50,883 bases of DNA from Cetorhinus maximus (lineage: Eukaryota). A model generated the notes under the pieces. The model was not told where the DNA came from. It made no database searches and saw nothing but the letters and a program-made list of their open reading frames with translations. Of the stretch, positions 6,860-33,249 are shown in pieces (positions within the stretch are counted from its first letter, which is position 1; the number at the start of each line of letters is the position of its first letter). Made by a program: the position numbers and the translations under genes. The stretch spans positions 3,237,118 to 3,288,000 of the forward strand of contig NC_135909.1 in NCBI RefSeq assembly GCF_964194155.1, in the 5' to 3' direction.

Positions 6860-7420
6860 CCCACCCTCAGAGCAATTTCCGGTTCCGGTGCCTCAGACGA
6901 TGGTGACGGGAGTAATGGAGGCGGCGGAGAATCCGTGGTCGGGGCCGGAGCCGAATCCACCGGCATCGGCTCCATCGGGCGGTGAGTGAGCGCGTTCCTG
7001 TCACCGATGGAAAGGGAAGGAGGGGATCGGTTGAATGGCGTCGATATTGACCGGGGGAGGGAGAGATTTGTCGCCGACGCCGGGAAGCGGATCCGAGCTG
7101 GCGCTCGGCTTTTCCGATGAGGGGGGAGGGGCACCAGCTTGTTGTGAGGGGAAAGTCGGATATGGGTTGGGGTGGGTGGAAGAGACTGAAGGACGCCATC
7201 TTCCATCACCATTCCTGAATTTGGCTCCATCTTTCCCCTGCCCCCCTTTCAAGGCTCTGAGATCGGGCGGAAACCCCGCTCGTAATGGCGCCGATAACCG
7301 GCCTTGGCGGAGGGGCACCGCGCAGGCGTAGACCCGGTTTCTGGGCGGGGCGGGGAGGAGGAGGTGAGGATACAAGACCCGGATGGGAACCCGGAAGTAA
7401 CATCACATCAATCCTTCCCG
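6860..7420 (+). promoter_or_regulatory. CpG island / TATA-less promoter region of the PRPF39-like gene
   Basis: Dense CpGs, tandem ETS/GABP-type cores TTCCGGTTCCGG (6877-6888), GC boxes gggcggggcgggg (7343-7355) and CCGGAAGT at 7391. Overlaps predicted exon 1. Confidence 0.7.
6900..6981 (+). CDS. PRPF39: PRPF39-like exon 1 (MVTGVMEAAENPWSGPEPNPPASAPSG; start at 6900 or 6915)
   Basis: ATGs in a CpG island with an open frame to donor G|GTGAGT at 6982. Phase 1 joins in frame to the acceptor at 10857 (G+AC = Asp). No homology support. Confidence 0.65.
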
Positions 7421-10857: not shown

Positions 10858-12815
10858 ACGGTGAGCAGAAATTACTGAAAGGCAGTCTGGGTGGGAGCGA
10901 TCAGTGCGCCGTGCAGAAGGGGTCCACACGAGCCCTTGGCCTACATGCCGATGAGACTGCAGTAGAGGAGGCGATTGCCGACTGCCCCAGCCCCTGTGAC
11001 AGGGACTCCGGCGAGGAATCAGCGGCAGACACTCCAGGCTCAAGTGACGGGGCCACTGTGGAGGACCCGGCAGCCGATTCCACTGGGGACACGGGTGAGG
11101 AGTCAGCAGCCGATTCCACTGGGGAGGAGTCAGCAACTGATTCCAAAGGCCCAAATGACAGTGGAGAGGAGTCGGCAGCAGATTCCACAGGACCAAGTGA
11201 TGGGGACACTGTAGAGGAGGCAGCAGCGGACAGCCCTGGCCCCTGTGATGGGGACACTATGGAGGAGGCAGCAGCGGACAGCCCTGGCCCCTGCGATGGG
11301 GACACTGTAGAGGAAGCAGCAGCGGACAGCCCTGGCCCCTGTGATGGGGACACTATGGAGGAGGCAGCAGCGGACAGCCCTGGCCCCTGTGATGGGGACA
11401 CTGTAGAGGAAGCAGCAGCGGACAGCCCTGGCCCCTGCGATGGGGTGTCTGTCGATGAGGCAGCAGCGGACAGCCCTGGCCCCTGTGATGGGGACACTGT
11501 CGATGAGGCAGCAGCGGACAGCCCTGGCCCCTGTGATGGGGACACTATGGATGAGGCAGCAGCGGACAGCCCTGGCCCCTGTGATGGGGACACTGTCGAT
11601 GAGGCAGCAGCGGACAGCCCTGGCCCCTGTGATGGGGACACTGTCGATGAGGTAGCAGCGGACAGCCCTGGCCCCTGTGATGGGGACACTGTAGAGGAAG
11701 CAGCAGTGGACAGCCCTGGCCCCTGTGATGGGGACACTGTCGATGAGGCAGCAGCGGACAGCCCTGGCCCCTGTGATGGGGACACTGTCGATGAGGCAGC
11801 AGCGGACAGCCCTGGCCCCTGTGATGGGGACACCGTCGATGAGGCAGCAGTGGACAGCCCTGGCCCCTGTGATGGGGACACTGTCAATGAGGCAGCAGCG
11901 GACAGCCCTGGCCCCTGTGATGGGGATACTGTAGAGGAAGCAGCAGCTGATTCCACTGGCCAAAGTGTTGGGGACATGAGGGAGGAAGCTGCTGCACGCA
12001 GTCCTGGCCATTGTGATATGGATACCGTAGAGGAGGCAGCTGCTGATAGCCTTGGTCTGTGTGATATGGACACCGTAGAGGAGGCGGCTGCTGGTAGCCC
12101 TGGCCCCTGTGATACAGACACTGTGGAGAAGACGGCTGCTGGTAGCCCTGGCCCCTGTGATACAGACACTGGAGAGGTGACGGCTGCTGGTAGCCCTGGC
12201 CCCTGTGCTACAGACACTGTAGAGGAGATGGCTGCTTGTAGTCCTGGTCTGTGTGATGATACTGTGGACAGTCCCAGCCCATGTGACCGTAATGAAGTAG
12301 AGAAGTCAGCTGCTGAAAGTCCAAGTCCGTCGGGTGTTCAGAGCACAGCAGGAGAACTATCTGGAAGTCTTAACCCGCCTTCTGATCAGGACAATGTGCC
12401 AGAGGTGGAAATGGGTGGGCCGAGCATTGACAAGGATACTGCGGAAGAATCAGCTAATGAGTGCACTAGCCTGGGTGCTGGTGGTCAGGACACTGTAGGT
12501 GAGCTAGCTGCCGATTCTTCCTGTAGTACGATGGTGCAGGAGGGAGTGCCACAGCTCCCAGAGAGCTCCAATGGGCCAGAGCATGTGGTAGACAAAGCAC
12601 TGGCCAACTCTGATTGTGTGGGCTACACAACAACAGAGGGCACCGCTGCTGGCCTGGATGAGTATGGGCAGGGCAGCAGTGAGTACGGGGCCTTGGAGGC
12701 CGAGGGCAGCATCCCGCCGTACCCAGCGGACTTTGAGAAATACTGGAAGATAGTGGAGGATAATCCGTACGATTTCACTGGATGGACATACGTCTTGCAG
12801 TACGTGGAACAAGAG
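10858..12815 (+). CDS. PRPF39: PRPF39-like exon 2: giant acidic tandem-repeat region followed by the first HAT repeat
   Basis: Acceptor ctctcttttgtttgcag and a 1958-nt open frame ending PADFEKYWKIVEDNPYDFTGWTYVLQYVEQE|gtgagg, matching the end of human PRPF39 exon 2. Confidence 0.9.
11199..12260 (+). repeat. Coding minisatellite, 48-nt unit (16 aa): 15 near-identical copies at 11199-11918 plus about 7 diverged copies
   Basis: Unit gatggggacactgtcgatgaggcagcagcggacagccctggcccctgt, counted directly. Confidence 0.97.
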
Positions 12816-14806: not shown

Positions 14807-14932
14807 AATCACATCTGGGCCGTGCGGAAGGCGTTCGATGCATTCTTCGCCCGCTACCCCTACTGCTATGGCTACTGGAAGAAATACGCTGACATTGAAA
14901 AGCGTTTGGGGTTCACCAAAGAGGTTGAGGAG
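14807..14932 (+). CDS. PRPF39: PRPF39-like exon 3
   Basis: NHIWAVRKAFDAFFARYPYCYGYWKKYADIEKRLGFTKEVEE; AG/GT boundaries, 126 nt. Confidence 0.96.
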
Positions 14933-15255
14933 GTGAGGGGGGTGATGCTGGGAGTTTTGGGGCTTCTGTTTCCTTTCAGTTGTTTAAGCTGCTGACTAAA
15001 ACTACTGGTATACGGCTGACAGGTTGGTCAGATTACACCATGGTCGCTGGGCTACTTTTGACCACTGGTGCCAACTTGTGACAGAAAAATATTAGACCTT
15101 TGCCAATGAACTTTATGTGATTACGTTTGCGATTTTTATTTCTCTGCTTCTCAACATAGACACAACTGTGGACATTGTAGATGTCGACAGTGTGGAGGGA
15201 AGCCATTTGGCCCATGTGTGCCCAGCCGCTCACTTTCCCTTTTTCTCTTTGCCAC

Positions 15256-16610
15256 AAGAACAGAAGGAATAGGAGCAGTAGTAGACCACTCGGCCCATTC
15301 ACCGTGAGATACGATCATGGCTGACCTTGGGCTTCAACTCCATTTTCCCCGTCCGTCCCCCATATCCCTTCGTTCCCTGAGGGACCAAAAATCTGTCTGT
15401 CCCGCAGCCTTAAACGTATTCAACAATGGAGAATCCACAACCCTCTGGGGCAGAGAATTTCATAGGTTCACCACCTTTTTGAAGCATTTTCTCCTTGTCT
15501 CAGTCCTAAATGATCGGCCAGTTATCCTGAGACTGGGCCCCCCGCGTTTTAGATTCCCCGACCAGCGAAAACAATCTCTCAGCGTCCACCCAGTCACAAC
15601 CGCAAAAGAATTTTGTAGCTTTCGAAGAGATCGCCTCTCATTATGCTAAAATAGAGAATACAAGCCCAGTTTACTCAGCCTCTCATCTTAGGACAACCCC
15701 CTCATCCCGGTGAACCTTCACTCTACCGCCTCCAATGCGAGTATATCCTTTCTTAAATGTGGAGATCAAAACTGCGCACAGTATTTGCTGTGGTCTCACC
15801 AAAATCTTGTAAAACTCTAGCAAAATTTCTTTATTCTTGAACTCCAATCCACTTGCAACAGAGGCCAACAAGCCATTTGTCTTCCTAATGCAAACTTTCC
15901 ACATTCCTTCTACGAGCACACCCAAGTCTCTTTGGACATCAGCACTTAAAGTTTCACACTTATACAATATTCTGCTTTTCTATTCTTTTGACCAAAGTGA
16001 ATAACTTCACATTTGCCTACGTTATAATCAATCTGCCATCTTGTTGCCCACACACTTAACCTGTCTATATCTCTCTTGCGTCCTCCCCACAGCTTAATTT
16101 TCCACCAAGCTTTGTATCATCAGCAAACTTGAGTATTACTCTGTGTCTCTTCTCTAAGTCATTAATATAAATTGTAAATAGCTGAGGCCCCAGCACTGAT
16201 CCTTGCGGCACACCACTAGCCACTACCTGCCAGCTTGGAAAAGCCCTGTTTATGCCCACTCTCTGCTTTCTATCCATTAACAAATCCTCTATTCATGCTA
16301 AAATGTTACCCCCTCCCTTATCTTGCCTATTAACCTTTTGTGTGGCACCTTATCGAATGCCTTTTGGAAATCCAGGTATACTACATCTACTGGTTCCCCT
16401 TTATCTACCCTACTAGTTACATCCTCAAGAAACTCTGATAAATTTGTCAAACAGGATTTCCCCTTAGTGGAACCATGTTGACTTGTTCTAATCATACTAG
16501 AGTTTTCTAAGTGCATTGTTAAGACTTCCTTAGGAATAGATGCCAGCATTTTCCCAACGACTGATGTTAGGCTAGCTTGACTGTAGCTTGCTGTTTTCTC
16601 TCTCCCAGCT
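15256..16610 (-). mobile_element. Decayed CR1 LINE in intron 3
   Basis: Minus-strand RT motifs VDVVYLDFQKAFDKVPHKRL, SGVPQGSVLGPQLFTIYINDL and KFADDTKLGG. Confidence 0.9.
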
Positions 16611-16708
16611 TTCGGGAAAATAATGCTCTCTGCCAACCCTGTTAACTCCCCAGGTTAAGGCCCATCAGTGCAGGGAAATGGAGCTCTTTTATCATTGGTA
16701 CTAACTAT

Positions 16709-17113
16709 CCCATCAAACATTCCCAGGACAGCTACACCATGGGGTTACATACAGAGTAAAGCTCCCTCTACACTGTCCCCATCAAATACTCCTAGGGCAG
16801 GTACAGCACGAGGTTAGATACAGAGTAAAGCTCCCACTACACTGTCCCCATCAAACACTCCCAGGACAGGTACAGCACGAGGTTAGATACAGAGCAAAGC
16901 TCCCTCTACACTCTCCTCATTAAACACTCCCAGGACAGGTACAGCACGGGGTTAGATACAGAGTAAAGCTCCCACTACACTGTCCCCATCAAACACTCCC
17001 AGGGCAGGTACAGCACGAGGTTAGATACAGAGTAAAGCTCCCACTACACTGTCCCCATCAAACACTCCCAGGGCAGGTACAGCATGTGGTTAGATACAGA
17101 GTAAAGCTCCCTC
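16709..17113. repeat. 69-bp minisatellite, about 6 copies
   Basis: Unit tacactgtccccatcaaacactcccaggacaggtacagcacggggttagatacagagtaaagctccctc. The marker gagtaaagctcc recurs every 69 nt. Confidence 0.95.
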
Positions 17114-17214
17114 TATCTAAATAATGTGCTTAGCCCCCTTTTTTCACAAGCATCCCATTTGTCCCGTTTCTTACTGATGTGTTCTAACAGTTGCACTGTG
17201 TTTTTTTGCTGCAG

Positions 17215-17333
17215 GTTTACCAGCGAGGTCTCCAGTCCATCCCACTCAGTGTCGATCTGTGGGTTCATTACATCACTTACCTGCAGGAGGTCCTTGAGGC
17301 TACCAATCCTGAAACTCCTGCTAAACTTCGAAG
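17215..17333 (+). CDS. PRPF39: PRPF39-like exon 4
   Basis: VYQRGLQSIPLSVDLWVHYITYLQEVLEATNPETPAKLR; 119 nt; donor AG|GTAAG. Confidence 0.96.
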
Positions 17334-17740
17334 GTAAGCCTGAACTATCCAGCATTGGAATGGGCAGGCGTGGTGGAGTTTGAGCCCAGTGCCTGAGCCT
17401 CAGTCGCTGTTTGTTTTTTACCTTAAATTGGTGCTGTTTAATCTGCTCTCTGGAGCAAGATTTTGAGGAGGTCTCTGAACAGACTTGAACAGGATGGATT
17501 ATTGTGAAAGTGGGGTGGGGGAGGGATATAAGAACCCCACCTTGGCTGAGCAGCCAGTTCCTCAGGGGTGGAAAGATCAAGAGCCAGAGCACACAGATTG
17601 AAGATGATTAGCCAAAGACACAATAGCGGCATGTGGAAAATCCTTTTCAGGCAGTGAGTGGTTTGGATCTGGAATGCACTGCCTGAGAGTTGTACTGCCC
17701 ACAGCAATGTGGTTGACTCTTTATTGCTGTCTCTGCCCAC

Positions 17741-17807
17741 AGTGGTGTTGCGGAAGCATGCTGGGCCCGTAACCCAGAAATCAATGGATTGAAACCATCC
17801 TCTGCTA
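17741..17807 (+). pseudogene. Initiator tRNA-Met pseudogene (first 5 nt missing, anticodon CAT changed to CGT)
   Basis: 9 differences over 67 nt from vertebrate tRNA-iMet as recalled (…GCGGAAGCGTGCTGGGCCCATAACCCAGAGGTCGATGGATCGAAACCATCCTCTGCTA), several at CpGs. Confidence 0.9.
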
Positions 17808-17810
17808 TTT

Positions 17811-18450
17811 ATTCACCAGGATGTTGCCTGGACTGGAGCGTTTCGGCTATGAAGAGAGACTGGATAGGCTGGGATTGTTTTCCTTAGAGCAGCGAAGGCT
17901 GAGGGGGGACCTGATTGAGGTATACAAAATTATGAGGGCATAGACAGGAAGAAACTTTTTCCCCTTAGTGGAGGGATCAGTAACCAGGGGGCATAGATTT
18001 AAGGTAAGGGGCAGGAGGTTTAGAGGCGAGTTGAGGCAAAAAATAATTTTCACCCAGAGGGTGGGCAATATCTGGAGCTCTCTGCCTGAAAAGGTGGTAG
18101 AGGCAGGAACCCTCACAACATTTAAGAAGTATTTAGATGAACACCTGAAATGCCATAGCATACAAGGATATGGGCCAAGTGCTGGACAATGGGATTAGAG
18201 TAGATAGGGGCTTGACCAGCGCGGATACGATGGGCCGAAGGACCTCATTCCGTGCTGTTCAACTCTGACTCTGAGTGTGGTGGAGGCAGGTTCAATCGAG
18301 ACTTTCAAAAGAGGAATTGGGTATTTATCAGAAAGGGGGAGAAGTTGTAGGGCTATGGGAAAAAGGCCGGGTGAGCGGGACTAGACGAGTCGCTCTGGCA
18401 GAGAACCGGCGCTGACACAATGGGCTGAACGGCCGCCTTCTGTGGTATTA
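17811..18450 (+). mobile_element. CR1 LINE 3' ends (two adjacent fragments)
   Basis: Encodes ...RLGLFSLEQRRLRGDLIEVYKIM...TRGHRFK...FTQRV. Tail gatgggccgaagg. Confidence 0.85.
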
Positions 18451-19261
18451 CAATTGCGACCTACTCGCAGCATCGCAGAGAGGGAGAATGCAACGCTCCC
18501 TCAGTACTGGCACTGGGCGTGTTGGCCTAGGTTTTGTGCTGCAGCACCCAGGACAGGGCTCAAACCGACTCTGACGTGAGAGGAGAGTGTGAGCCCGTAA
18601 GTCACGGCTGGCACACCCATTGGGATTAGTGGGCAGGGAGGGGAACACTCCTCTCGCACGCTCAGTACTACTGTTTCTCAGCCACATTCCCTGTTTTACA
18701 GACTCGCACAGCCATGGGCTTGTTGCATCAGACTGGCAACAATGCAGGGTTGCATAGACCTGGCACTGCTAGATTGAAATTCATCCAGTGCCCAAGAAGA
18801 TTTGCACCATTTTAGTGCAGGAGTAAAGTGGATAATTTAATGGCCCAAACTGACTAACAGAAAATCTAACGGTGAATGCCGCCAGAGTTTTCTGTTTCTG
18901 ATTTGCAGCATCAGCAATATTTTTCTTGCCTCTTTTTGGGAGTTGTTAGTGATGGCTGTTTGACAATTATTCGATATAATTGGGAGCCAGTCCGGTCATG
19001 GTGAGAGTGCAGTTATTATTGGTGCCCGTGCTTGTTTGAACACTTAATGGACATGTAATTATTTAATCATTTTTCTGCCATTCATCTGTAGCCATAAAAT
19101 CTTAGACGTTAAGGTATGAATACATTGCCTCCCTACAAAACCCATGTTTTGGGGTGCAGCAGAGCGACATCAGCACCGACCAGTGCAGATGGCAATATGG
19201 CGTTGGCAGGAGGCACAGTGTTTGTATAATGCTCCTGATCGAGGTTGGTCTTTATTGGGCA

Positions 19262-19267
19262 CTCTCT

Positions 19268-19308
<41 letters not shown>
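19262..19308. repeat. (CT)n microsatellite
   Basis: Seen directly. Confidence 0.9.
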
Positions 19309-19310
<2 letters not shown>

Positions 19311-19384
19311 CTGTACTGCTCTCATCTGTTGATCTCTGCCATTGGGTTTCGCCTGACGAACAGTTCTTGTTTTTCTATTCGCAG

Positions 19385-19552
19385 TGTGTTTGAAATGGCG
19401 TTGGCTGCCGCCGGCACCGATTTCCGCTCTGACCGACTCTGGGACCTGTACGTGAACTGGGAGAAGGAGCAGGGGCAGCTGAAGGCCGTGACTGCCATTT
19501 ACGACCGGGTGCTGTCGATACCCACGCAACTCTACAGCCACCACTTTGAGAA
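19385..19552 (+). CDS. PRPF39: PRPF39-like exon 5
   Basis: VFEMALAAAGTDFRSDRLWDLYVNWEKEQGQLKAVTAIYDRVLSIPTQLYSHHFE; 168 nt, phase 2/2. Confidence 0.97.
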
Positions 19553-19763
19553 GTGAGTGAAGAAGGCGGCTTTGTACGGTTAACGTGTAAATGTTAGGAA
19601 ACGTTGTTCGCGGCTGACCCGGGAGGCCGGGTGGGTAAGGGCACCGTTCAGAGAAGAGTTAAAGCTGTGTTGAGTTTCTGGCGTGGTATCGCAAAGTATT
19701 TACAGCACAGCGACAGGGCATTCAGCTCAACTGATCCACGCACCGCACGGGCCCCCTCCTCAC

Positions 19764-20782
19764 TAGGGTTGCCAACCCTCCCGGAAAGGCTGGGGATCTA
19801 CCAGATACACCATCCATCTCCCAGTGGCTGAAAGCAATCTTGGAGATTTTAAAAGGATAATTCTGTGATTCCATTCTGTAATTCATAGCCCTCGGCCGCA
19901 GCCCAGTCACGAGCAGCGATGATTGTGTTCACAGCGGCCGCGCGGGCGCAGTCTGATGACATAGAACCTAACCGACGTGACCACACACGCATACCGTGCT
20001 CGTAGACTTCGTTGCTGTTGCCTGTTTTCCCTCCCCCCCACCCCAACCCCGTCAACGGTGTCTGACCTCGAGCTGACATTAACAGAGACAAAAAGAACTC
20101 AGGAGGTAAAGGAGCGAGCAGTTAAGCGAAGGGCAACTGTCTTGAGCTTTCAACTGCCCCTGCCTGGAAAATCCACAGCACTGGTTGCCAGCCTAGAAAG
20201 CCTTGCACACAGCTGAAGTCCCGCGGCGCGATGCCAGAGGGAGCGTGGCTGCCTGCTTTGTTGCTGTGCTAGGAAAAGTTGAATTGATTAAAAAAAGGCC
20301 TAATGAGGCCATTTCGCCTTAAGACAATGGAATCGACTGAACCAGCAACAAAACATTTGTTTTGTTGGAAAAATCTTTGACTCAGCAACTCGTCAGGCAT
20401 TAGGAATGTGGTGAAACGGTGGCGATCGAGGAGAAATCGTGACCTAGGCCCTGCTTAAAGCCTGGGCCTGTCCTGCGCCTGCATTCGCCATTAAGGTTCC
20501 AGCGTGTTACTTCAACCCCCAAAGAGAGAGTGGGCGGGCGTGCCGCCAATTTTTAACGCAGTGTTTTATTTGTTTTCTAATCTTGGGATCTTGAGCACAA
20601 CTCGTGTTGGGAGCCGGAATTTAACGTTTAAAAGGTGGCCAAGGGAAGCGGGCTGAGATGGGTTGGATGAGACGTTGGGTCCGGCGAAGAAATTCACCAG
20701 CTAGTGCCATGCTGCCGGCTTTCCATTGTGTCTCTTCTGCTGACGTCTCCTGAAATATGCCCAGCCAGAGTTGGCAACCCTA
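19764..20782. mobile_element. ~1-kb non-autonomous DNA transposon with perfect 13-bp TIRs (hAT-like)
   Basis: TAGGGTTGCCAAC (19764-19776) and GTTGGCAACCCTA (20770-20782). Flanks cctcctcac / cctcccat resemble a decayed 8-bp TSD. Confidence 0.6.
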
Positions 20783-21004
20783 CCTCCCATCCCCTCGCCT
20801 CGCCCCGTCAACATATCCTTCTATTCCGTTCTCCCTCGTGTGTTTATCCAGCTTCCCCCTTAAGTGCGTCCATACTGTTTACATCAACCACGCGCTGTGG
20901 GAGCGAGTTCCACATTCTCACCACCCACTGGGTAGTGAAGTTTCTCCTGAATTCCTGATTGGATTTACTAGTGACCATCTTATATTCCTCTGGGGAGTTG
21001 GTGG

Positions 21005-21385
21005 TGTACTGGTAATGGGCTAGTAACCTGGAGGCCCAGGCTAATGCTTTGGGGACAGGGGTTCAAATCCCACCACGGCAGCTGGTGGAATTTAATTTCA
21101 ATTAATAAATCTGGAATATAAATCTAGTCTCAGTGATTGTTTCATAGTCACCATCATCGATGGTTGTAAAGATCCATCTGGTTCACTAATGTCCCCTGTA
21201 GGGAAGGAAATCTGCTGTCCTTACCCGGTCTGGCCTACATGTGACTCCAGACCCCACAGCAATGTGGTTGACTCTTAACTGCCCCTCTGAAATGGCCGAG
21301 CAAGCCACTCAGTTCAAGGGCAATTAGGGATGGGCAACAAATGCTGGCCTTGCCAGTGACGCCCACATCCTGTGAATGAATTTTT
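21005..21385 (+). mobile_element. tRNA-derived SINE with LINE-shared tail
   Basis: B box ggttcaaatcc. Tail aagggcaattagggatgggcaacaaatgctggcc...cccacatcc...gaatgaat. Confidence 0.8.
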
Positions 21386-22965
21386 TTTTTTTTAAATGAC
21401 CAACCTTGGATTTCACTTTGTAAGTTTGGAAGGCCAGGATGCTGGAACATGAGAACGATGACAGACAGACAGGAAAAAACCTTCTCTCCTCCACCGACTC
21501 CATCCCGCACGATCGCAATACCTTATGCATCGCAGTATGTAAACTCCTCACCTCACCTGGAATCGTGATCGCCCGGGAGAGGCGAGAAATGGGATTTAAA
21601 ACCCCCAGGCTAGTTGGTTGAGGTGGGCGCGGGGGGGGTTTAAGATTTCGGAAATTCCTCTCTGACCCCCTGTTGACGACCAAAACTAGTCCAGGAGATC
21701 ACACCAGCCCTGAATTCTTCGCAGTACCTAAGGCGATCCCTGCCAGCACCAGGCCCAGTTTGCATTTGAAACTCTTAGCTATATAATGTTGCATTGTTTT
21801 CTGGACCGTAGCAACAATGCTCGGGGCCCACTGCCAGACTCCGTATTAAAAGAACAGCCTCAAACGAGAGGAGCTTCATAGGCCAGAAAGCTCTAGTTTC
21901 AGTTCTGTTAGCCCACCTCAGTGCAGGGCAGTGTGTACGCTGTCTGTTTAAAATTTGTTCTCGGTATCCAGACCTCGCCGGCATTAGTTGCCCGAGGAGG
22001 TGACGGTGGTGGGCCGCTGCCGCTCAGAACCGCTGTGGGACACTCTCAGAGGCTAAGACCCCTGTCCGCATTGCGGTGGGACTGACGTGCAGGCCCAGAC
22101 TGGGTAAGGACAGCCCTACAGGATGTCGGTGAACCAGTTGGGGTTGTTGACTGGCCTCGGTGCTGTCGAAGCCAGGGGAGCGGTAAGATCGTCCAGGGGG
22201 TTGCCAGCTCCTCCTGATCGCCATTCGCAGGCCCCTGGCCTGGTGTGGACGGATCCAGCTTGGCTGTAATGCCCCCCTGCTGAGCATAGTAGCCTCCTGC
22301 GCATGAAGAATGGCCGCTCGGGCAAATTACTGGAGGCCTCCCCCAACCCAACCCACTCTCACTGTTGGGATGGCATCTGAGTGAGAGTTGGTGCCTTCAG
22401 GAGTGACTGGTGTCTTTTAACATGCACTTTAACGCAGTAAAAGTTCCCAAGGCTAATCACGAGGAGAGGTTATTAACCAGGCGTTGACACATGAGACACT
22501 AGGACAGGTGGAAGCTTGCTCATAGGGGTCGGCTTTAAGAAGCATCTTAAAGGAGAGGTTTAGAGAGGGAATTCCAGAGCCTCAGACACAAGCAACTGAA
22601 GCTACAGCCACCAGAGGTGGACTGATGAAAATCGGGGGTGAGCAAGAGGCCAGATATCTCCAAGGTGTAAGGGTGTGGAGGGATTACAGAGATAGGGATG
22701 CGAGAGGCCACGGAGGGATTTGAACGTGAGCCGATGCGGGGCCAGGAGCTAATGTGGGTCAGCGAGCACAGAGGCGAGATAGGTGAACGGGACTTGGTGA
22801 GAGTTAGGCCACGGGGCAGCAGGAACAGGAGGAGACAGGTCCAAAATGTAACGTCGCGCTTTGAGCCGCTACTCGCTACTCACCAGGGGTCCACACCCCA
22901 TGCGGTGACAGCTTCACCTAAATCTGGAGCCGAGCCCTAACTCCGGGTCTCTCGCTGTCGTACAG

Positions 22966-23137
22966 GTTTAAGGAACACGTGCAGAACTACTCACCGAAGG
23001 ACATCCTGTCCACCGACGAGTTCCTCAAGCTGAGGTCAGAGGTCGTGACCAGCCTAACGGTGGCAGAAGCAGATTGCGACGAGGGTCCCCCTGGAGACGA
23101 CCCTCCCCCTGGAGTGGGGACCACTGACGAGGAGAAG
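22966..23137 (+). CDS. PRPF39: PRPF39-like exon 6
   Basis: FKEHVQNYSPKDILSTDEFLKLRSEV...GPPGDDPPPGVGTTDEEK; AG/GT boundaries and phase consistent. Confidence 0.95.
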
Positions 23138-23893
23138 GTGACCCATTGGACTTTTTTACCTGGGAGTTATTTACATAATGAAGTCTGGCCGTCTCCAAGA
23201 ACCCTAATTTTTAACTGCCCATTCGTACAGAGGCTGATTCCCCCGAAGTTGACACCCTACAGCTGATATAGTAGTCCTTTTGTGCTCAGCCTGGGGAAAA
23301 GAGGGCAGAATTGGCTCATTGTGAGTGCTGACCTGTTATCCACCGCTGGAAGTAGACACGAATGTGTGGCAAGGGCAGGGGTAGCGGTTGATTGTGGTCA
23401 AAGAGCCTGTCTTGGATGACGGGTGAGATGCTGTCACTCGGGTGATGATTTGGCACTCGAGGGTTGTAGCACAGCAGCACTCGTCCTCTTCGAGAGAGAG
23501 AGAGGGGGAGTTGCTGCGTGTCAAACGGTTGCAATCGCCCTGTGTTATCTCCAGGTTAACAGCAATCGCAGGTCAAACAGCCAGTGTTGGTGGCTTGTGC
23601 AAGTCCTGATACTGAGGCTGCGCTGTGATCATTAAGTCCCCCTCACTGTTTCATTCAGTTCACTCCTTAACTTCCTTACGGGAATGTTGGTTTGCGGGAC
23701 CTTGGGAGGAGCGTGGGCGGGGTGGAGAGTTCTGTCCCATGAGCTCACGTCCATTGCAAACTGGTGAATGTAATTCAGGAGGGCAGGGCCCGCGGAGGGG
23801 TGTGGGGATTTGTCAGGTTTTATATAGACGGTACCTCCGAGTGCCGGTTCCTCTCGCTGACGTTTGTTTCTTTATCACGCTGCCCCGTCCCAG

Positions 23894-24001
23894 GCTGACA
23901 CGGAGCTGGAGAAGATCCGAGCGCACCTAGTGGCCACTCGGCATGAGATGTACCTACTGAACGAGGAGGAAGTCAGCAAGAGGTGGAATTTCGAGGAGGC
24001 G
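23894..24001 (+). CDS. PRPF39: PRPF39-like exon 7
   Basis: ADTELEKIRAHLVATRHEMYLLNEEEVSKRWNFEEA; 108 nt. Confidence 0.95.
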
Positions 24002-24658
24002 GTAAGGTTGAATCTGTGCGCCCCACTGTCTGGCGTATAACCTGCTAACCAGCAACTGTGTGCCGCTGTAATAGAAGCGGGGGCGCAGTGCTGTGTTTGC
24101 AACGTGGGCAGCGATGAGGAAGAGCGACTCGCCCATCCCTGTTCGTGCGTCTTTTCATAGAGAGACAGTCCTCTTCCCCCCCCAACCCCCCAACAACATG
24201 GCATGCAACTACATCTTAAACCGCCTCCAGCACTGAGCCCATATTCCAGGCTGACCCCCTAATGCTAGTACTGAGGGAGTGTTGTCAGAGGAATCATACT
24301 GAGGCTCTTTCTGCTGTTCAAGTGGACGTTAAGGACCCTATGGTATTATTTTGAGGAGAACAGCGGATACTAGCACAGGCGACCAAAAGCTTGGCTGAAG
24401 AGAGAGAGAGAGAGGTTTTAGGAGCAACTTAAAAAGAGGAGGGAGAGACAGAGCGGCTTAGGGAGGGAATTCCGGAGTTTGGGGCCCAGGCAGCTGAAGG
24501 CACGGCCAGTGGTGAAGCGATTACATTTGGGGTAGGGGGGGGAGAGAGAGAGAGAGAGCGCAAGAGTCCCGAATTGGAGGAGTTCAGAGATCTCGGTTTC
24601 TTTACCCTAACTTGCACTCGCTTTATCAGCTCTGATTATCCTGTCGCCCTCTTCCCAG

Positions 24659-24823
24659 ATCAAGAGGCCGTACTTCCACGTCAAGCCTCTCGAAAGAGTG
24701 CAGCTGAAAAACTGGAAGGACTACCTGGATTTCGAGATTGCCGGCGGCACCAACGAGCGGGTTCTGGTATTGTTCGAGCGTTGTATGATCGCCTGTGCTC
24801 TGTACGAGGACTTCTGGATCAAG
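24659..24823 (+). CDS. PRPF39: PRPF39-like exon 8
   Basis: [55 protein letters not shown]; 165 nt. Confidence 0.98.
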
Positions 24824-25232
24824 GTGAACCCCCTCTTCTCAGAAGCTCGCACCCGGGATACAGATCCCAGCTTTTCCTGCCGATCGTTCCCGATCAGCGG
24901 CTTCTCGTTTTTTCCTTTTATAATTTTTGTGTTTGTTGATTATTTTTTGCAAGCGTTTCCAACAAAAAAAATTTCACGTTTTACTTTGATGATCTGACTT
25001 CTAACATAATCTTTTAATTCCATTGCTGTTTTATCTGCACGTGTTGCTTCAAACTAAAGAAGTTAAGGGATTGCTGAAGAAATGTGTAAGCGTGTTATCA
25101 CTGTGAGTGCCCCCTCCAGTTCTCAATAAGCTGTACCATGATGTCTTTTTATTTTTTAACACGGCGCCGTGCGCGTCGGAACCAGTTGATCTTGTTTTCC
25201 TTCATCCCTTTCTGACCTCCTTCTGCCCGCAG

Positions 25233-25359
25233 TACGCCAAATACCTGGAGAACCACAGTGTGGAGGGGGTCCGTAATGTTTTCCAGCGGGCCTGCATGGT
25301 CCACCTGCCCAAGAAGCCCACCCTGCACTTGCTGTGGGCCGCCTTTGAGGAGCAGCAAG
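25233..25359 (+). CDS. PRPF39: PRPF39-like exon 9
   Basis: YAKYLENHSVEGVRNVFQRACMVHLPKKPTLHLLWAAFEEQQ; 127 nt. Confidence 0.97.
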
Positions 25360-25944
25360 GTGAGGAAGCCCCGATTGCTTGCGTGCGCGCCACCCCCTCC
25401 CCAAAAAACATTTGGTCGTTAAAAGCGTCTGAACCTTCCAATCCCGGCAGCCGCGGTGCTGTACGCAAATCGGCCCGGTCTGGGTTAGAGGTCCCAGCGC
25501 GTTACGCGACCTTTTCGGGGACCTTTTCTCGCCCCATCTCTCAGAAATGAACCTAGTTTCGAAGCAGATTGATGGGTTTTAGGTGACTTCACCACAGCCG
25601 TCATCGTGGTACCGGACTTTACAGTGCAGGACCAGGGCAGATTGTGAAATTGGGTTTGACATGAATGTGGCAATTAGTGAGCCGGCACCACAAAAGCTGC
25701 GGATTGCCATTAAAAGCCCGACTTATTCACTGATGTCCTCCAACCGTTTGCGACGGTGACACACTGGGGGCCAATAAGTGCACCTTGTCCACAAATACAA
25801 TTAATTTCTAACGAGTGGCAGAATGTCAGGGATAGGAAGACGAGCCTTGTTTAACACCTTGTCCAAAGAATGTTAATAAGAGTGGCGACTCGGCACTGGA
25901 ATCCTGGAGTAGACTCCACCACGTCCACCGTGTGGTTGACACCA

Positions 25945-26200
25945 CAACCACATTGCTGTGGGCCTGGAGTCACATGTAGGCCAGACCGGGTAAGGACAGC
26001 AGATTTCCTTCCCTAAAGGGACATTAGTGAACCAGATGGGTTTTTGCAACAATCAACAATGGTTTCGTGGTCATCGTTAATCTTTTAATTCCAGATTGTT
26101 ATTCAATTCAAATTCCACCAAGACATGGCGGGGTTCGAACCCTGGTCCCCAGAAGATTTCTCTGGGTTACTAATCCAGCGACAATACCACTATGCCATAG
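25945..26200 (-). mobile_element. tRNA-derived SINE (same family as 21005)
   Basis: Reverse complement of 21020-21270. Confidence 0.75.
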
Positions 26201-26475
26201 CCTTTGAGGCTAGTGATGATCCAAGACTGAATTTGGAGCAGGGCTGTTAATTCTGCGATGATGAGCGATGTATATTTGGCTTTCATGGGAAGAGTTCCGC
26301 TGTTAGTGAGATGTTGGGTTGTCGTGAAAGCCCAAGTGGTTCAGTAACATCCTATAGGGAGCGAAACCTGCTGATCTGACTCCAGTCCCACAGCAACGTG
26401 GTTGGCTCTTAACTGCCCTCTTGTAGTGATCTAGCAAGGCACTTGGTCGCATCAAGTTACCACAAAGAATGATCA

Positions 26476-27262
26476 GAGGTCCCCAGCATCACAGATGCCA
26501 GTCTTTGGCCAGGTCGATTCACTCCATGTGATATCAAGAAATTTGATTGGTAAGGGGATCAAAGGTTACGGGGAGAAGGCGGGAGAATGGGGTTGAGAAA
26601 CTTATCATCCATGATTGAATGGCGGAGCAGACTCGATGGGCCGAATGGCCTAATTTCTGCTGCTATGTCTTATGGTCTATATGGCACTGGGCCCTGACAA
26701 TATTCCGGCAATAGTAATGAAGACTTGTGCTCCAGAACTTGTCGCGCCCATAGCCAAGCTGTTCCAACACAGCTGCAACACTGGCATCTACCCAGCTATG
26801 TGGAAAATTGCCCAGGTATGTCCTGTACACACAAAGCTGGACAAATCCAACCCTGCCAATTACCGCCCCACCAGTCTACTCTCCATCATCAGTAAGGGAA
26901 GGGGTCGTCAACAGTGCTATCAAGCAGCACTCACTTAGCAATAACCTGCTAACTGGCGCCCAGCTTGGGTTCTGCCAGGGCCACTCAACTCTTGACCTCA
27001 TTACAGCCTTGGTTCAAACATGGACCAAAGAGCTGAACTCCCAAGGTGAGGTGAGAGTGACTGCCCTTAACATCAAGGCAGCATTTGACCGAGTGTGGCA
27101 TTAAGGAGCCCTAGCAAAACTGGAGTGAATGGGAATCAGGGGAAGACTCTCCACTGGTTGGAGATGTACCTGGCACAAAGGAAGATGGTTGTGGTTGTTG
27201 GAGGTCAGTCATCTCAGCTCCAGGACATCACTGCAGGAGTTCCTCAGGGTAGTGTCCTAGGC
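26476..27262 (+). mobile_element. LINE fragment (family of 8131-9815) containing a short CR1 tail insert (about 26542-26682)
   Basis: GPDNIPA..KTCAPEL, NPANYRP.SLLS, KAAFDRVWH, GVPQGSVLG. Confidence 0.85.
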
Positions 27263-27550
27263 TGCCACTCCCAGTTACTCCACAGTGGGCACCGTTGGGA
27301 AGTGCAGGTGTCAGATGAACTCATTTCCCTCAGTCGAGTAACGACCCCGTACGCTCCCTGCGTAAAGGAGGGGATTGTAGACGACAGCCGTGGAACCGTA
27401 TCCCAGCGCGGCTGCTGTGAACCCTAACTCTCGGCTGGTCAGAATAACTCGATTGGAAACTTCTGGTCGTGACTTCGCACAAAATGGGTGCCAAGTTGTT
27501 CTGTCGGTCATTGTCCCATCTACCAGATTATGGGTTGCAATTGATCTAAT

Positions 27551-28180
27551 AGCCTTCATTGGCAGAGGTATAGAATATAAAAGTAAGGATATAATGTTGG
27601 AATTGTATAAAACACTGGTGAGGCCACAACTGGAGTATTGTGTGCAGTTCTGGTCACCACATTACAGGAAGGGCGTAATAGCTCTGGAGAGAGTGCAGAG
27701 GAGGTTTACAAGAATGTTGCCAGGGTTAGAAAAGTGTAGCTACGAGGAGAGATTGGATAGGTTGGGGTTATTTTCCTTAGAACAAAGAAGGCTGAGAGGT
27801 GACTTGATTGAGGTGTACAAAATTATGAGGGGAATAGATGGAGTGGACAGGGTAAAATTGTTTCCCTTGGTGGAGAATTCTAGAACCAGGGGACATAGAT
27901 TCAAGATAAGTGGCAGAAGGTGTAGGGGGGGACATGAGGAAGAACTTTTTCACGCAGAGGGTAGTGGGTGTCTGGAATTCACTGCCCAAGGTGGTAGAGG
28001 CAGAAACTCTAAGCTCTTTTAAAAAGTACCTGGACCTGGGCCTTAGGTGCTGTAAGCTGCAGGACTATGGGCCGGGTGCAGGAAGGTGGGATTAGAAAGG
28101 GCACCTGGGTGTCTTCGGGCTGGCATGGACAAGATAGGCCGAATGGCCTCCTTCTGTGCTGTAACTTTTCTGTGGTTCTA
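27551..28180 (+). mobile_element. CR1 LINE 3' end, relatively intact
   Basis: LYKTLVRPQLEYCVQFWSPHYRK...LERVQRRFTRMLPGL...RRLRGDLIEVYKIM. Confidence 0.9.
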
Positions 28181-28184
28181 AGAC

Positions 28185-28620
28185 CGTAAGTAATGGGAGT
28201 TGGAGGAGGCCATTCAGCCCCTTGAGCCTGCTCAACCATTCATTAAGATCATGGCTGATTTTCTACCTCAGCTGCACTTTCCCTCCCCTATCCCTCAGTG
28301 GCCAAAAATCCACCGGTCTCGGTCTTGAATGTACTGGATGACTGAGCGTGCACAGCTGTCTGGCGTAGAGAATTCCAAATATTCACCACCCTCTGAGTGA
28401 AGAAATTTCTCCTTCTCTCAGTCCAAAATGGCTGACTCCTTACCCTGAATCAGTGACATCCACCCCCCCGCCGAGTTCTTGACTCTCCAGCCAGGGGGAG
28501 ACAGCTTCTCACAATCTGCACTGTCAATCGCTCGAAGAATCCTATGAGATAACCTCTCATTCGTCTAAACTCCAGGGAATATATAGGTCCATTTTACTCT
28601 GTCTCTCCTTGTAGAATAAT
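28185..28620 (-). mobile_element. CR1 LINE 3' end
   Basis: Similar to 15256-15700 (ggccattcagccc...atcatggctga...ccaccctctgagtgaagaaatttctcc). Confidence 0.75.
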
Positions 28621-29264
28621 GCGCGCTCATTCCCGGATCCGCACGCGTGAGCTTTGGTAATTGCAATTTCAGTGTTAGCATTTTGGTTGTGGGGGGCGGT
28701 GGGGGGGTGTTGTGTGAAGGTGAGATCGGGACAGGCCGCCCACCCTCTTTGGACAGCCAGCTAACCGGACGGAATAAGTGAGCGGGGTGGGGGACAGCAG
28801 TCAGTCCCAAATGACGACAGCAGCAGTAGTTACAGGGGCTGTGGCATTGGCAGTACACAGAAAGTGAGTTCAATTTTTAAAAGAGAAAAAGAGAGAGACT
28901 AGCAAGCACGTTGTATCCCTTTATGATAAATACAGTTTTGCAAGTCCATTGCAGTACACCGTCCGTCTTAGCAGTTCCATCTCAATTTGTTGCACAGTTC
29001 AGGGTCCAACTGCGCTGGTGCAGAGTCGGTGCCAAGGCAGCCCACAAACGATTGACAGTTTACTGGACTGGAATGTGTACCGTGCAAATAAACCCCCCCA
29101 CCCCGGCCTTGTAAACTGAGACCAGTGAACCAACCAAATTCTCGAGGCCAGTGCGTGTTTTTTGTCGCTCTTGTTCCAGGCCATTTGTTTTTAAGAGAAT
29201 TTGTAACCCAGGCCTCTAATGTGCAGCCCAAAGTTTACAAGTTGGTTACGCTTGCTGCCTTCAG

Positions 29265-29740
29265 CTGATTCCTGCCTGGGATGAAGGGGGGTTTGTCTGA
29301 TGAGGAGAGGTTGAGCAGGTTGGGCCCTGTGCCCATTGGAGTTTAGACGAATGAGGGGTGATCTCATTGAAACACACAAGATTTTGAGGGGCCTCGACCG
29401 GTTTCGATGCTGAGAGGATGACCCCTCTTGTTGGAGGAATCTAGAACTAAGGGACAGAGCTTCAGAATAAGGGGTCTCTCCCATTTAGGGTGGAGATGAG
29501 GAATTTCTTCTCTCTGAGAATCGTTTGTCTTTGGAACTCTCTTCCCCAGGGAGCAGTGGAGGCTGGTGAATCGATTCAGGGCTGAGTTAGACAGGTTTTT
29601 GATTGACAAGGGAGTCGAGGATTGTGGGAGACGGGCAGGAAAGTGGAACTGAGGCCACAGTCAGAACAGCCACGACCTTATTAAACAGGGGAGCAGGCTC
29701 AGTGGGCCGAATGGCCGCCTCCTGTTTCTTATGATCCTAT
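29265..29740 (+). mobile_element. CR1 LINE 3' end
   Basis: tgaggagaggttgagcagg...aatgaggggtgatctcattgaaac...gggccgaatggcc. Confidence 0.75.
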
Positions 29741-30634
29741 TTTGACCGACTAAAGCAATTTAAGAGGCAGCTACAACTTGACTGGATTCACCCTTTCAGA
29801 GCTGTGACCTTTTTAACTGGACCGGGCCAGGTGAGTGAGTGAGTGCGAGCAGCCCCATGGATATTGGGTGCATTGAGAAATCTAGCTGAATGACCAAGGA
29901 CAGTAGTCCAGGGTGCCTGGTGAGTCTTGGAAAGGGGCCACAGCCAAGTTGAGTAGCGGAAGTCAGGTGAAGCCAAGCTCGTGAAGCAAGCTAAGGAGGG
30001 GGGAGGGGGGGGCGAGGTGTAGAGTTTGCTTGCATTTGAGGTCCTGGCTCAGAAGGAGTTAGAGTTGGGAGGTGGTACAGTGACCCCCCCCATTGTGGGG
30101 AGTGGTGGTGTTCTGGAGTCACTGGGGTCTTTTGGGGTGGTGGAACGCAAGGAGAGGATGCTGACTGTCGAACGGTGAGGGGATTGATTTGGAGTTTTTT
30201 CCGCGGGCAGGTTCGGCAGGGAGTGGGGTGGGGGTGTGGGCAGCACGCCCCAGAAACGCAGGCTGACTGCCGCCCAGTACAAACCGGTTTGTGCACAGGC
30301 TGCGTAACCCCCCGCCAAAACCCTTCACGCTGTCCTGAGTGATCTTCCATTGTTCGGTAGTTTTAGTTGGGGACGTGGCTTATTTTGGAAACGAGCTTTA
30401 TTACTTCAGGCTTCACGGGATAATCCCATTTTAGATGGTTATGGAATTCCTGCTAAACACTGTGTAGAAGCAGTTGGTAAGTTTCTGAAGCAGAGCACAG
30501 CTTTGAAACAAGAAGCCTATAAAACACAAATTCAGGGAACTTTGTATGATAGATTGTCGTAAGCACATCTGCTGAATGACACTTCGTCACCTGTGGCAGC
30601 CTGATGTGAATTTGCTCTCGTGTTACTCGCCTAG

Positions 30635-30903
30635 GTGACCTCGAGGAAGCCCGGCGTATCCTCAAGTCCTTCCAGATGGTGGTGCCCGGCCTGGCGATGG
30701 TGCTCCTGCGGCGCGTGAGCCTGGAGCGTCGCTGCGGGCACCTGGACCAGGCAGAGGAGCTCCTGCGGGAGGCCATCGAGCAGCACAGGGACACGGCCCT
30801 GGCCTCCTTCTTCTCCATCAAACTGGCGAGGCAGCTCCTGAAGGTGCAGAAGAGTCTGGTGAAGGCCAGGAAGGTGCTGCTGGAGGCTGTCGAGAGGGAC
30901 AAG
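30635..30903 (+). CDS. PRPF39: PRPF39-like exon 10
   Basis: GDLEEARRILKSFQMVVPGLAMVLLRRVSLERRCGHLDQAEELL...RKVLLEAVERDK; 269 nt. Confidence 0.97.
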
Positions 30904-31609
30904 GTGAGGTGGGGGTGGGGGGGGTTAGCGGTGGGTAGGGGTGCGTACATGTGTCTGTCTGGGAGTGCCAGGGTTCTGCTGGGTCAGCTGCTGAATTCAA
31001 AGGTGAATGAGACCTTGTCTGCTCCATCGGGTGCGTATCAAGGATCTTAGAACTGGGGTGTCCTGAGCCAATGTTGATCTCTCGGCTGACATCATTAAAT
31101 CGGATGGTCACGATGCTGTTTGTGGGTGCTTGCTGTGCGCAAAATAGCTGCCACATTTCTGTCTGCTCCGTGTTGGCTTCTCTAGGGGGAAACTAGAGGA
31201 ATTTGATTCTTATTCATCGACACAGGTTAAGTGCGATCCCTCAAAATCATGAGGGGTTTTGACAAAGGAAATTGGAGAACAACTACTTGCGCTGGCCGGT
31301 GATTTAGTAACTAGAGGGCATCAGTTTAAGATTAGCGGCTAAAAAAAATTGATGGTGGGCAGTTGGTAGTTAAATTTGTTTTACCCAGTGGGCGGTGAGA
31401 ACTTTGAACCCCCTGAGCAGGAATAGTGGGCGATCAGCCTGCACCCCCCTTCACTGAATAGACTTTCTCAGCCTAGGGTCATGTGAGGTGCCCACAACCC
31501 CTAGAGCTGTATCTCGGTGAAGGATAAGGGCCTTGAGGGAAGGGGATAGATAACGCGCGCGATGCAGTACTTACCTCCCTCTAACGTGGGCGCCTTTTGG
31601 CTTTGGCAG

Positions 31610-31794
31610 GAGAACACCAAACTGTACCTGAACCTGTTGGAGCTGGAGTTCAGCGGTGATGTCCGAGTGAACGAGGCCAACATCTTGGGCTGCTTCGAGC
31701 AGGTGCTTATCAGCTCCCTCCCCCTTGAGACCAAAATCGTCTTCTCCCAGCGGAGAGTGGAGTTCCTGGAGGATTTTGGCTGCAATGTACAGAC
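31610..31794 (+). CDS. PRPF39: PRPF39-like exon 11
   Basis: ENTKLYLNLLELEFSGDVRVNEANILGCFEQ...FSQRRVEFLEDFGCNVQ; 185 nt. Confidence 0.97.
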
Positions 31795-32696
31795 GTGAGC
31801 GTCAATCTCCGTGTCTACAGCGCCGGGGGGTGGGTGTGTCTGTGGGTGGGGGTGTGGGTGCGCAGGTGTCTGTCTGTGTTGTCCTACCTATTGGGAAAGG
31901 AAAAACAAGCTGGATCGCCCTTCACATCGCAAGATCGGGATGAGGGCTGACCTGACTGAGGTGTTTAGAACTAGGAAAGGTTTTGATAGAGTAGACACAG
32001 AGAATACTTCCGCTTCAGGGGAAGAGCCAAACTAGAAGCCACCAACATGTAGAGTGAAGAAACCCAATCGGGAATTCCGGAGAAATTTCTTTACCCAGCG
32101 ACTGATGAGAATGTGGAACTTTGCACCACAGGGAGCGGTTGAGGTGAATAGTACACACTCACCCTTAAATGTATCTCTCTACCTATGAAACCCCTGAATG
32201 CAGCAGGCCAATCAGCCATGTAGGGCATCACATTCAAGTTGAATTCATTAATGTGATGGGGCACCTAGAGACGTCCAGCACTGGAGAGCGTGTCCACCTG
32301 GGTGGGCACAGCAACCCCTCGGCTGCCTGTGGCCTGGCTATGCCAGTACCACCGTTACTACCCAGCCTGGCTGAAATTCAATGCCGGCTCAGGTGTAACC
32401 AGGACTTTCCAGGCCTGTGCGTGTGAGCAGCTCGCCTCCTTCAGCCAAGGTCAGAAAGAGACGACTTGAGAATCTAAAGCGCATCAACTCGGGAGGCATT
32501 TAACGTTTTAAAGAGGGTTTTGGGGCCTCTGTTTCTTTTGAAGCTTTGCACACCTCTGCCCCCTCCTAGCTGCTTTTCAGCTGGCTGAGGTCACGTGTCT
32601 GCTCTTGTCTCCTGTTGCCGATGCCTGATGTGTGTCCCATATGTTTCTCCCCCTCAACCCCCACCCCCCCCATCCCCCTCCCCACACCCACTGCAG

Positions 32697-32771
32697 ATTA
32701 CTACACGCCTACGATGAACATCAGAAACTCCTCAAGCAGAATTCCAGTAAGAAGCGAGCGGCCGAGAATGG
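32697..32771 (+). CDS. PRPF39: PRPF39-like exon 12
   Basis: LLHAYDEHQKLLKQNSSKKRAAENG; 75 nt. Confidence 0.95.
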
Positions 32772-33249
32772 GTGAGTACCTCGTGGCTTTAGGTTTTCTT
32801 TTTTAAGCTTTCCTCTCGGCGCCTCGCCTCTCTGTGCACCCGTTTCCAACATGGGGTGGGGGGAGGGGGGGGGGGGGGGGCTTGTGGGCTTGAAAGGGTT
32901 GGGCGAAGACGCTCTCTGCCCGCCACTTTGAGTTGAGCGTGAGAGTGCAGGGCCCACTTCACCATTCCTACCCGTGCGGTGATGCCCATCGCCTGGTTTA
33001 GGCGAGAGTTGGGTTGCGACCGGCAGTGTCTATTTGATCCCCTCCCCAGAGCTGATTGTGAACATGCCACTCTCCATCTCTGGTAAATCTCCGCACATAT
33101 CACTGGGAATGGTGTAATATACTGGTATCAATTTCTTAAAGAAAGACTTGCATTTCTCAAGCACCCTTCACAATCTCCGCGTACCCCCAAACGCTTTGCA
33201 GCCAGTGAAGCATTTTTTGAAGTTGCAAGTTGACGTGTAGCCAGGACTT

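Follow-up and report, generated by a model that had tools for sequence, protein, structure and literature searches.

Genes at the locus and structure of the PRPF39-like gene

The window (the whole stretch of 50,883 nucleotides that was analysed, on contig C32 of Cetorhinus maximus) contained a gene on the forward strand which matched the Pfam domains HAT_PRP39_N (E 3e-23) and HAT_PRP39_C (E 2.8e-28). The gene model comprised 14 exons (3771 nt, 1256 aa) with a single terminal stop and GT-AG at every intron. The coding part of exon 1 began with the ATG at 6900 and was spliced in frame to exon 2 from a phase 1 donor after 6981. Exon 2 spanned positions 10858-12815 of the forward strand (1958 nt), as first noted, with the acceptor TTTGTTTGCAG/AC at 10858 and the donor GAG/GTGAGG after 12815; no stop was found in one of its forward frames, while the other two contained 18 and 60 stops, respectively. 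A sequence-only reading of this DNA had claimed a 1958-nt exon with 15 near-perfect and 7 or more diverged repeat units, and its boundaries, frame and repeat counts were all reproduced. The features of the gene were as follows.

6900..6981, + strand: exon 1 coding part of the PRPF39-like paralogue, MVTGVMEAAENPW..., 27 aa (phase-1 donor; 100% match to residues 1-27 of P0011; X1, X2 and X8 contigs carry the joint with exon 2)
10858..12815, + strand: exon 2, 1958 nt, acidic disordered extension and first HAT helices (open frame, contig joints, gene model, predicted disorder)
10960..11198, + strand: degenerate 5' unit copies of 14-16 aa, S/T-G-rich, some without Cys (repeat finding, translation, cross-species unit comparison)
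11199..11918, + strand: 15 near-perfect 48-nt units, DGDTV(E/D)EAAADSPGPC, in 12 distinct DNA variants (repeat finding, translation)
11919..12254, + strand: 7 diverged 48-nt units (repeat finding, translation)
12255..12719, + strand: acidic non-repetitive 3' flank with a near-neutral change rate (contig joints, codon comparison, gene model)
12720..12815, + strand: start of the HAT_PRP39_N domain (..PYPADFEKYWKIVEDNPYDFTGWTYVLQYVEQE) (Pfam PF23240 positions 1-27; pLDDT 79-94)
14807..34935, + strand: exons 3-14 (14807-14932, 17215-17333, 19385-19552, 22966-23137, 23894-24001, 24659-24823, 25233-25359, 30635-30903, 31610-31794, 32697-32771, 34178-34331 and 34873-34935), with intact HAT-NTD, linker, HAT-CTD and tail (core 609/610 aa identical to P0011)

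The frame had also been described as open through the diverged flanks, which was borne out: the non-array flanks (113 + 155 codons) were jointly stop-free in 0 of 20000 base shuffles, and the frame was intact in every shark retrieved. An assembly artefact was ruled out because 12 of the 15 core units were distinct in DNA and the same array was present in other shark assemblies. Antisense ORFs of 478 and 391 aa lay over the array and were treated as a by-product of the stop-poor repeat.

The gene stood beside BSCL2 and a DACT gene. Upstream, L028-L036 (C32:3,147,000-3,237,000) contained, in a row, TPR, Dapper, ATG8-family and Seipin genes, the first of which is presumably TTC9-like. Downstream, exons of a transporter family which we take to be SLC22-like were found in the window (42737-43171) and beyond it (L038:5726-5848, L040:6422-6586 and L042:3896-4018), forming at least two tandem genes; one of the four reached a match to Sugar_tr, and this was weak. 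Rfam gave 0 matches in the window and in seven C19 loci. The neighbourhood of TPR, Dapper, ATG8 and Seipin genes matched the Dact4 locus of PMC4236578; a passage of that paper gives Dact4 for reptiles, Latimeria and ray-finned fish only, and PRPF39 is not mentioned in its main text. The row of genes in this shark (Cetorhinus, C32) would be a Dact4-type locus.

A second PRPF39 gene and phylogenetic placement

A genome search with one HAT exon showed two genes, the one in the window and one on contig C19 (87%). The C19 gene was intact, with a matching exon series, a short exon 2 and an N-terminus of 136 aa, and per HSP its exons matched P0058, which its source enters as Cetorhinus maximus PRPF39, at 86-100%. 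Canonical PRPF39, with its short N-terminus, was therefore located at about 29,810,000-29,864,500 of C19 (L005-L010). A gene with a BTHB domain (FKBP3-type) was found about 40 kb downstream of it, at about 29,902,000 on the minus strand; we take this neighbour to be FKBP3, to which human PRPF39 is presumably linked as well. An ORF near 29,930,000 on C19 was also seen, which is presumably serpin-like. C19 carried reticulon, phosphorylase, DPF and BTHB genes, and a search of C32 with the paralogon markers reticulon, phosphorylase and DPF gave no match.

HAT-core trees were built quickly from 68 of 125 proteins and carefully from 20 rows, with the root placed on lamprey and hagfish by assumption. 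Two jawed-vertebrate clades were obtained. The canonical clade contained mammals, ray-finned fish, chimaera and the C19-type shark genes, while the paralogue clade (support 100/99, 20 rows, careful) united the shark and ray orthologues of the window gene with the 'PRPF39-like' genes of coelacanth, turtle, squamate and bird. Within the best 120 of 1160 matches, every mammalian, amphibian and ray-finned fish sequence that was placed in the trees fell into the canonical clade. A constraint uniting all cartilaginous-fish rows was rejected in the 20-row tree (p-AU 7e-44), and with the assumed root on lamprey and hagfish this dates the duplication before the split of sharks and bony fish. The window gene did not group with mammalian PRPF39, nor did it adjoin FKBP3, whereas the C19 copy did both.

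By these sequence comparisons, the window gene is identified as an ancient jawed-vertebrate paralogue of PRPF39 and not as the orthologue of human PRPF39, and the duplicate likely came from the early vertebrate genome duplications. The earlier description of the exon as an addition to a core splicing factor did not hold, since the gene is a duplicate and the canonical copy, with its 136-aa N-terminus, is intact on another contig. The length of 1256 aa set against 669 aa in human stood as a number, but the comparison is one between paralogues, not orthologues. Human PRPF39 has been described as a U1-auxiliary alternative-splicing factor (PMC9808567).

Splicing of exon 2 into transcripts

None of the runs was on record as RNA, and splicing was read from GT-AG joints only. 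Runs X1, X2 and X8 represented two related organisms and three studies. The end of exon 1 (6981) was joined to the start of exon 2 (10860) in contigs of three of four runs (X1, X2 and X8), and two letters between 6981 and 10860 in the X2 joint placed the acceptor at 10858. The donor at 12815 was joined to 14807 over a GT-AG intron in the same three of four runs. Contigs of X1, X2 and X8 continued towards the array from both sides and ran straight through the in-phase AG at 12212-12213 into the diverged units. The comparison covered both ends of exon 2, with the near-perfect array itself outside, and contigs drop rare forms, so that minor isoforms may exist; among the contigs listed at these two ends, no internal-acceptor joint or loose end was found. 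X16 contigs covered part of 11050-11190 without a joint, and X9 had no joint of exons 2 and 3. Exon 2 is spliced into transcripts, and the in-frame splice to the HAT domain that had been claimed was confirmed by the GT-AG joints in contigs of related sharks and by the 14-exon model. We infer from the sequence that the long form is translated.

Reverse-transcriptase fragments, presumably LINE-like, were seen in the introns (window 8243-9750, 16298-16654 and 26754-28022) and dominated the transcript-contig coverage of intron 1. In annotation, isoform X2 of Mustelus (P0002) was without the 42-aa exon 3, which amounts to an in-frame deletion in HAT-NTD; this form did not appear in the contigs examined, in which such a skip would not show up as a joint.

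The HAT core and the dimer interface

The core of the window protein was identical to that of Carcharodon (P0011) at 609 of 610 aa (99.8%), to other sharks at 92-95% and to canonical PRPF39 at 64%, while the flank of the N-terminal extension was 90% identical to P0011. The Heterodontus orthologue P0013, whose core is 95% identical to the window protein, was used for the fold test, and its model superposed on mouse PRPF39 (6G70) with a TM of 0.97 and an rmsd of 1.7. On this model, the PRPF39 fold (HAT-NTD, linker and HAT-CTD, as in mammalian PRPF39, PDB 6G70) appears to be kept in the window protein. The exon layout also matched that of the shark canonical copy from exon 2 onward. The paralogue differed from mammalian PRPF39 in its core, which shared 64% identity with that of lemur and likewise with the canonical copy of the shark itself, and in its N-terminus of 646 aa against about 75-136.

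Residues R458, R464, E576 and D577 (mouse numbers), mutation of which breaks or weakens the mouse PRPF39 dimer (PMC6582350), were invariant in 51 rows (23/23 paralogue, 26/26 canonical and 2/2 cyclostome). The paralogue and cyclostomes have F in place of Y536; in shark and ray paralogues, L (F in one) stands two residues before R458. The net charge of the HAT core was negative (-12 to -28). The paralogue would still dimerise via HAT-CTD and act at the U1 snRNP.

Composition and predicted disorder of the array

Tandem Repeats Finder gave a period of 48 with 21.5 copies, and 28 windows matched the unit at 8/16 or more when the degenerate flanking copies were counted. Each core unit contained on average 4.87 D+E, 1 Cys, 1 SP, 0 K/R and 0 aromatic residues, in agreement with the composition claimed before (about five acidic residues, one SP, one Cys, almost no basic or aromatic residues). 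For the extension, f- was 0.25 and f+ 0.02, with 25 SP, 42 [ST]xx[DE] motifs and 29 Cys, and exon 2 had a net charge of about -140 without long D/E runs. Cys occurred once per 16 aa, and no CxC or CxxC clusters were seen. A search for the unit pattern elsewhere returned this array only, with 3 matches at one mismatch or fewer.

AlphaFold models (alignments of 14 and 51 rows) left the region ahead of the HAT domain without secondary structure and mostly at pLDDT <50, and charge-hydropathy values agreed, so that the extension is predicted to be disordered; a folded solenoid was rejected on these models. Long internal exons generally encode disordered regions (PMC9825244), and residues 1-73 of mouse PRPF39 are unresolved in the crystal (PMC6582350). 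Pfam matches to Cornifin (E 7.6e-12), Fibrinogen_BP and Bflower_2 were taken as compositional, and the ESM Atlas search (best score 0.85, recognition 745) was uninformative.

Distribution of the array across species

The 16-aa array was found in 8/8 other sharks retrieved, from both superorders (squalomorph and galeomorph), with 14-32 units in N-termini of 479-821 aa and a period of 16 aa (18 in part of Pristiophorus). Comparison with other sharks, proposed along with the first description, thus showed an array of varying copy number in an intact frame. Among rays, Pristis had 3 units and the other four batoids scored 0-2, while 0 units were found in six non-array controls and the array was absent from bony-vertebrate paralogue copies. 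The 'PRPF39-like' proteins of coelacanth, turtles, squamates and birds (annotation only) share the 100/99 clade and an acidic N-terminus with the window protein but differ from it in having N-termini of about 90-125 aa and no 16-aa units.

Sub-blocks differed by lineage (AAADS in Lamniformes, PPSGS in Heterodontus, MADGS in one Scyliorhinus and a Cys-free SPRPS in Mustelus). Across seven sharks, Ser (0.88) and Pro (0.75) prevailed at unit positions 13-14, and Cys stood at the first position in 67% of units. Only 4/14 Mustelus units kept the Cys, and entire sub-blocks in Heptranchias and Pristiophorus had S, N or G instead. The net charge of the extension was -83 to -181 in 8 sharks, -24 to -63 in rays and about -15 in bony-vertebrate paralogues. 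Because every PRPF39-family N-terminus examined was acidic (D+E 15-32%; that of lamprey measured 227 aa), the array amplifies an ancestral property.

Independent long acidic N-termini were also seen in the canonical-clade proteins of Conger (P0113, a protein of 1003 aa) and Megalops (P0093, 801 aa), and in the lamprey protein (P0020, 880 aa). A motif M-[ED]-[ITVL]-[DES] was observed in homologues of window 12405-12420, in N-termini of both clades (51/91 other rows); its forms were EMEID in several sharks and SMDTES or NMELED in canonical copies, and it was lost in the window protein and in Carcharodon.

Selection and mutational setting

Among the 15 units, variants in the window comprised 4 synonymous and 7 non-synonymous changes (p 0.25-0.39; small counts), and among 22 units 15 and 27, respectively (p 0.05-0.19), so that no significant synonymous excess was found among unit variants. 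Against the X2 contig, where 21/22 and 8/9 differences were visible, codons of the 3' flank (433/134 sites) differed non-synonymously in 14 cases and synonymously in 4 (ratio about 1.1); the corresponding numbers were 3 and 5 in the 5' flank (about 0.2; small counts) and 0 and 2 at the HAT start. Across orders, majority units agreed with the window unit at 11-14/16 positions, a likeness which the search threshold biases upward, while the non-repeat flank next to them was 57-64% identical. One-step changes to K, R, F, W and Y were rarer than others (p 0.009 pooled, 0.16 for transitions alone). The selection data, as far as these sequences go, fit a constraint on the frame and a weak constraint on the composition of the array.

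Minisatellites (period of at least 15) made up 11.2% of 251 kb round the window (30 arrays, the coding array excluded) and 0.3% of 200 kb at the canonical locus (3 arrays), the window region being about 35-fold richer. GC3 of the core was 0.75. The GC- and repeat-rich setting is like that of the 'elusive' duplicates of PMC5901865; neither the main text of that paper nor 12 of the 19 supplements named PRPF39. Arrays of several kilobases with periods of 23 and 70 were observed in L027-L046, and a 33-bp minisatellite with a 99-bp higher-order period lay at window 47208-48213, downstream of the first SLC22-like exon. A dispersed 69-bp minisatellite, which reads DGDSVEG in one frame, was present in intron 3 (window 16709-17115, minus strand) and nearby (L033:6872-7687; L035:3120-4246), and it had 21-22 of 23 nt in common with the coding unit. 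This likeness was found post hoc, its score being reached in 3/20000 shuffles with many array families in view, and the 69-bp minisatellite may be the seed of the coding repeat or a chance match.

Possible roles of the extension

Taken together, the array is probably a tolerated coding minisatellite in the acidic disordered tail of a working PRPF39 duplicate and not a sequence-specific device. The 48-nt unit would have arisen in the already acidic, unstructured N-terminus of an elasmobranch ancestor, and slippage or unequal exchange would have enlarged the array and made its units alike. The frame would be kept by selection, and so, to a weak degree, would an acidic, non-basic and non-aromatic make-up, but not the exact sequence or copy number; the tail would contribute no more than unspecific charge and steric bulk. 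As in coding VNTRs, the units stand head to tail, and copy number and sub-blocks differ between species. Mucin VNTRs and cornifin/SPRR are coding minisatellites in low-complexity proteins, and the array resembles them in its one long exon, head-to-tail units and lineage-specific copy number, as also in the Cornifin match by composition and the naming of one shark orthologue after a mucin. It differs in being strongly acidic and on a presumably nuclear splicing factor, and homology is unsupported. Against a merely tolerated tail stand the low ratio in the 5' flank (small counts), the likeness of majority units across orders, the scarcity of basic and aromatic replacements and the at least 479 N-terminal residues kept by 8/8 other sharks. 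The 16-aa period has also persisted, together with the DxDT..SPGPC skeleton, in squalomorphs as well as galeomorphs. The array offers a clear example of a coding minisatellite that has persisted, in a region prone to minisatellites, in every shark order sampled, and it could serve to ask whether selection favours such coding expansions or merely puts up with them. Should the latter hold for the tail, it would be a curiosity of one lineage, which would also account for mis-annotations like 'mucin-17-like'.

A selected polyanionic regulator, in which the tail shields the side of the HAT domains that binds RNA or U1C, Ser/Thr phosphorylation tunes the effect, and length and charge matter but not sequence, is rather unlikely. 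The charge fractions, the SP and [ST]xx[DE] counts, the net charge in all 8 sharks and the weak deficit of basic and aromatic changes speak for it, as do the binding of human PRPF39 to GC-rich RNA (PMC9808567) and the ability of acidic IDRs to autoinhibit nucleic-acid-binding domains (PMC10250230). However, the HAT core is itself net negative, mouse PRPF39 is without the basic groove of yeast Prp42 (PMC6582350), and rays and bony-vertebrate paralogues, with their far smaller charge, manage without the array. HMGB1-type acidic tails are likewise disordered, strongly negative tails on a nucleic-acid-binding protein (PMC10250230), but the shark tail has no consecutive D/E run, its folded partner is net acidic and its masking is putative.

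In the current model, metazoans are without a Prp42 counterpart and use a PRPF39 homodimer, which has been linked to splicing complexity (PMC6582350). The same interface residues in a second intact PRPF39 (sharks, rays, coelacanth, reptiles and birds) make heterodimers a testable possibility; the paralogue could heterodimerise with canonical PRPF39, and this is a more interesting lead than the repeat. Yeast Prp39/Prp42 offers the same arrangement of two Prp39-family genes per genome with a common dimer fold (PMC6582350, PMC5648754), but arose by an independent duplication, and the vertebrate paralogues are 64% alike against about 20%, their heterodimer being putative. A bolder reading, for which the chances are slim, is that many non-mammalian jawed vertebrates re-invented a Prp39/Prp42-like asymmetric dimer of canonical PRPF39 and the paralogue via the shared charged interface, and that in sharks the length of a phosphorylatable polyanion of 14-32 units on the paralogue arm gates binding of U1C or pre-mRNA. 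If it were true, repeat number would be a species-specific dial on the use of weak 5' splice sites.

The sequence-only reading had also proposed a scaffold like the Pol II CTD. In such a scaffold each unit would dock a partner, for example Pin1 or a protein with a WW domain, that recognises its phosphorylated Ser-Pro, and this is very unlikely. The frequencies of Ser and Pro at unit positions 13-14 and the conserved period favour it. The CTD of RNA Pol II has a Tyr-containing unit with multiple phosphosites, under strong purifying selection and with mostly synonymous variation, whereas the shark units have no Tyr or other aromatic anchor and no significant synonymous excess (small counts), the 3' flank has a dN/dS near 1, STG variants are common, copy number ranges from 14 to 32, and the units are decayed and mostly lost in rays.

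It is scarcely probable that the long form is minor or not made as protein, either by a start at a downstream ATG or by a cryptic in-frame acceptor after 12213 that skips the array. In-frame ATGs downstream (for example at 12411) and the one in-phase AG (12212-12213) do exist inside exon 2, and some ray and shark annotations begin internally (P0001, P0004 and P0009); yet the peptide of exon 1 is conserved, each of the two ATGs in that exon stands in a context with a purine at -3 and G at +4, the contigs pass through 12213 into the diverged units, and the frame is intact across all sharks retrieved.

Metallothionein and Zn-binding arrays have clustered, invariant Cys motifs. The metal- or redox-sensitive array proposed earlier is the least credible reading. 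In it, periodic Cys with neighbouring Asp would bind Zn or other ions or form disulphides. The 29 Cys of the extension and the retention of the first-position Cys in two thirds of units favour it. Against it, the Cys are spaced one per 16 aa without clusters, are not invariant, being mostly replaced in Mustelus and in sub-blocks of Heptranchias and Pristiophorus, stand in a region with no predicted fold and belong to units largely lost in rays.

Public records of the paralogue and the repeat

The literature search on a PRPF39 paralogue or the repeat found no description, although subscription journals and supplements may list the ohnologue; one supplement of PMC13450315 was searched and gave no match. 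The locus had been put forward as the best candidate for an undescribed system, which stood as far as the literature searched is concerned but not for sequence records, in which the protein is publicly annotated from other sharks. The array is real, shark-wide and not described in the literature searched, and the overlooked second vertebrate PRPF39 matters as much. NCBI and UniRef already list long proteins of this kind under the names 'PRPF39-like', 'mucin-17-like' or 'uncharacterized', and the Scyliorhinus canicula orthologue (P0012), a PRPF39-like protein, was automatically named 'mucin-17-like' due to its repeat.
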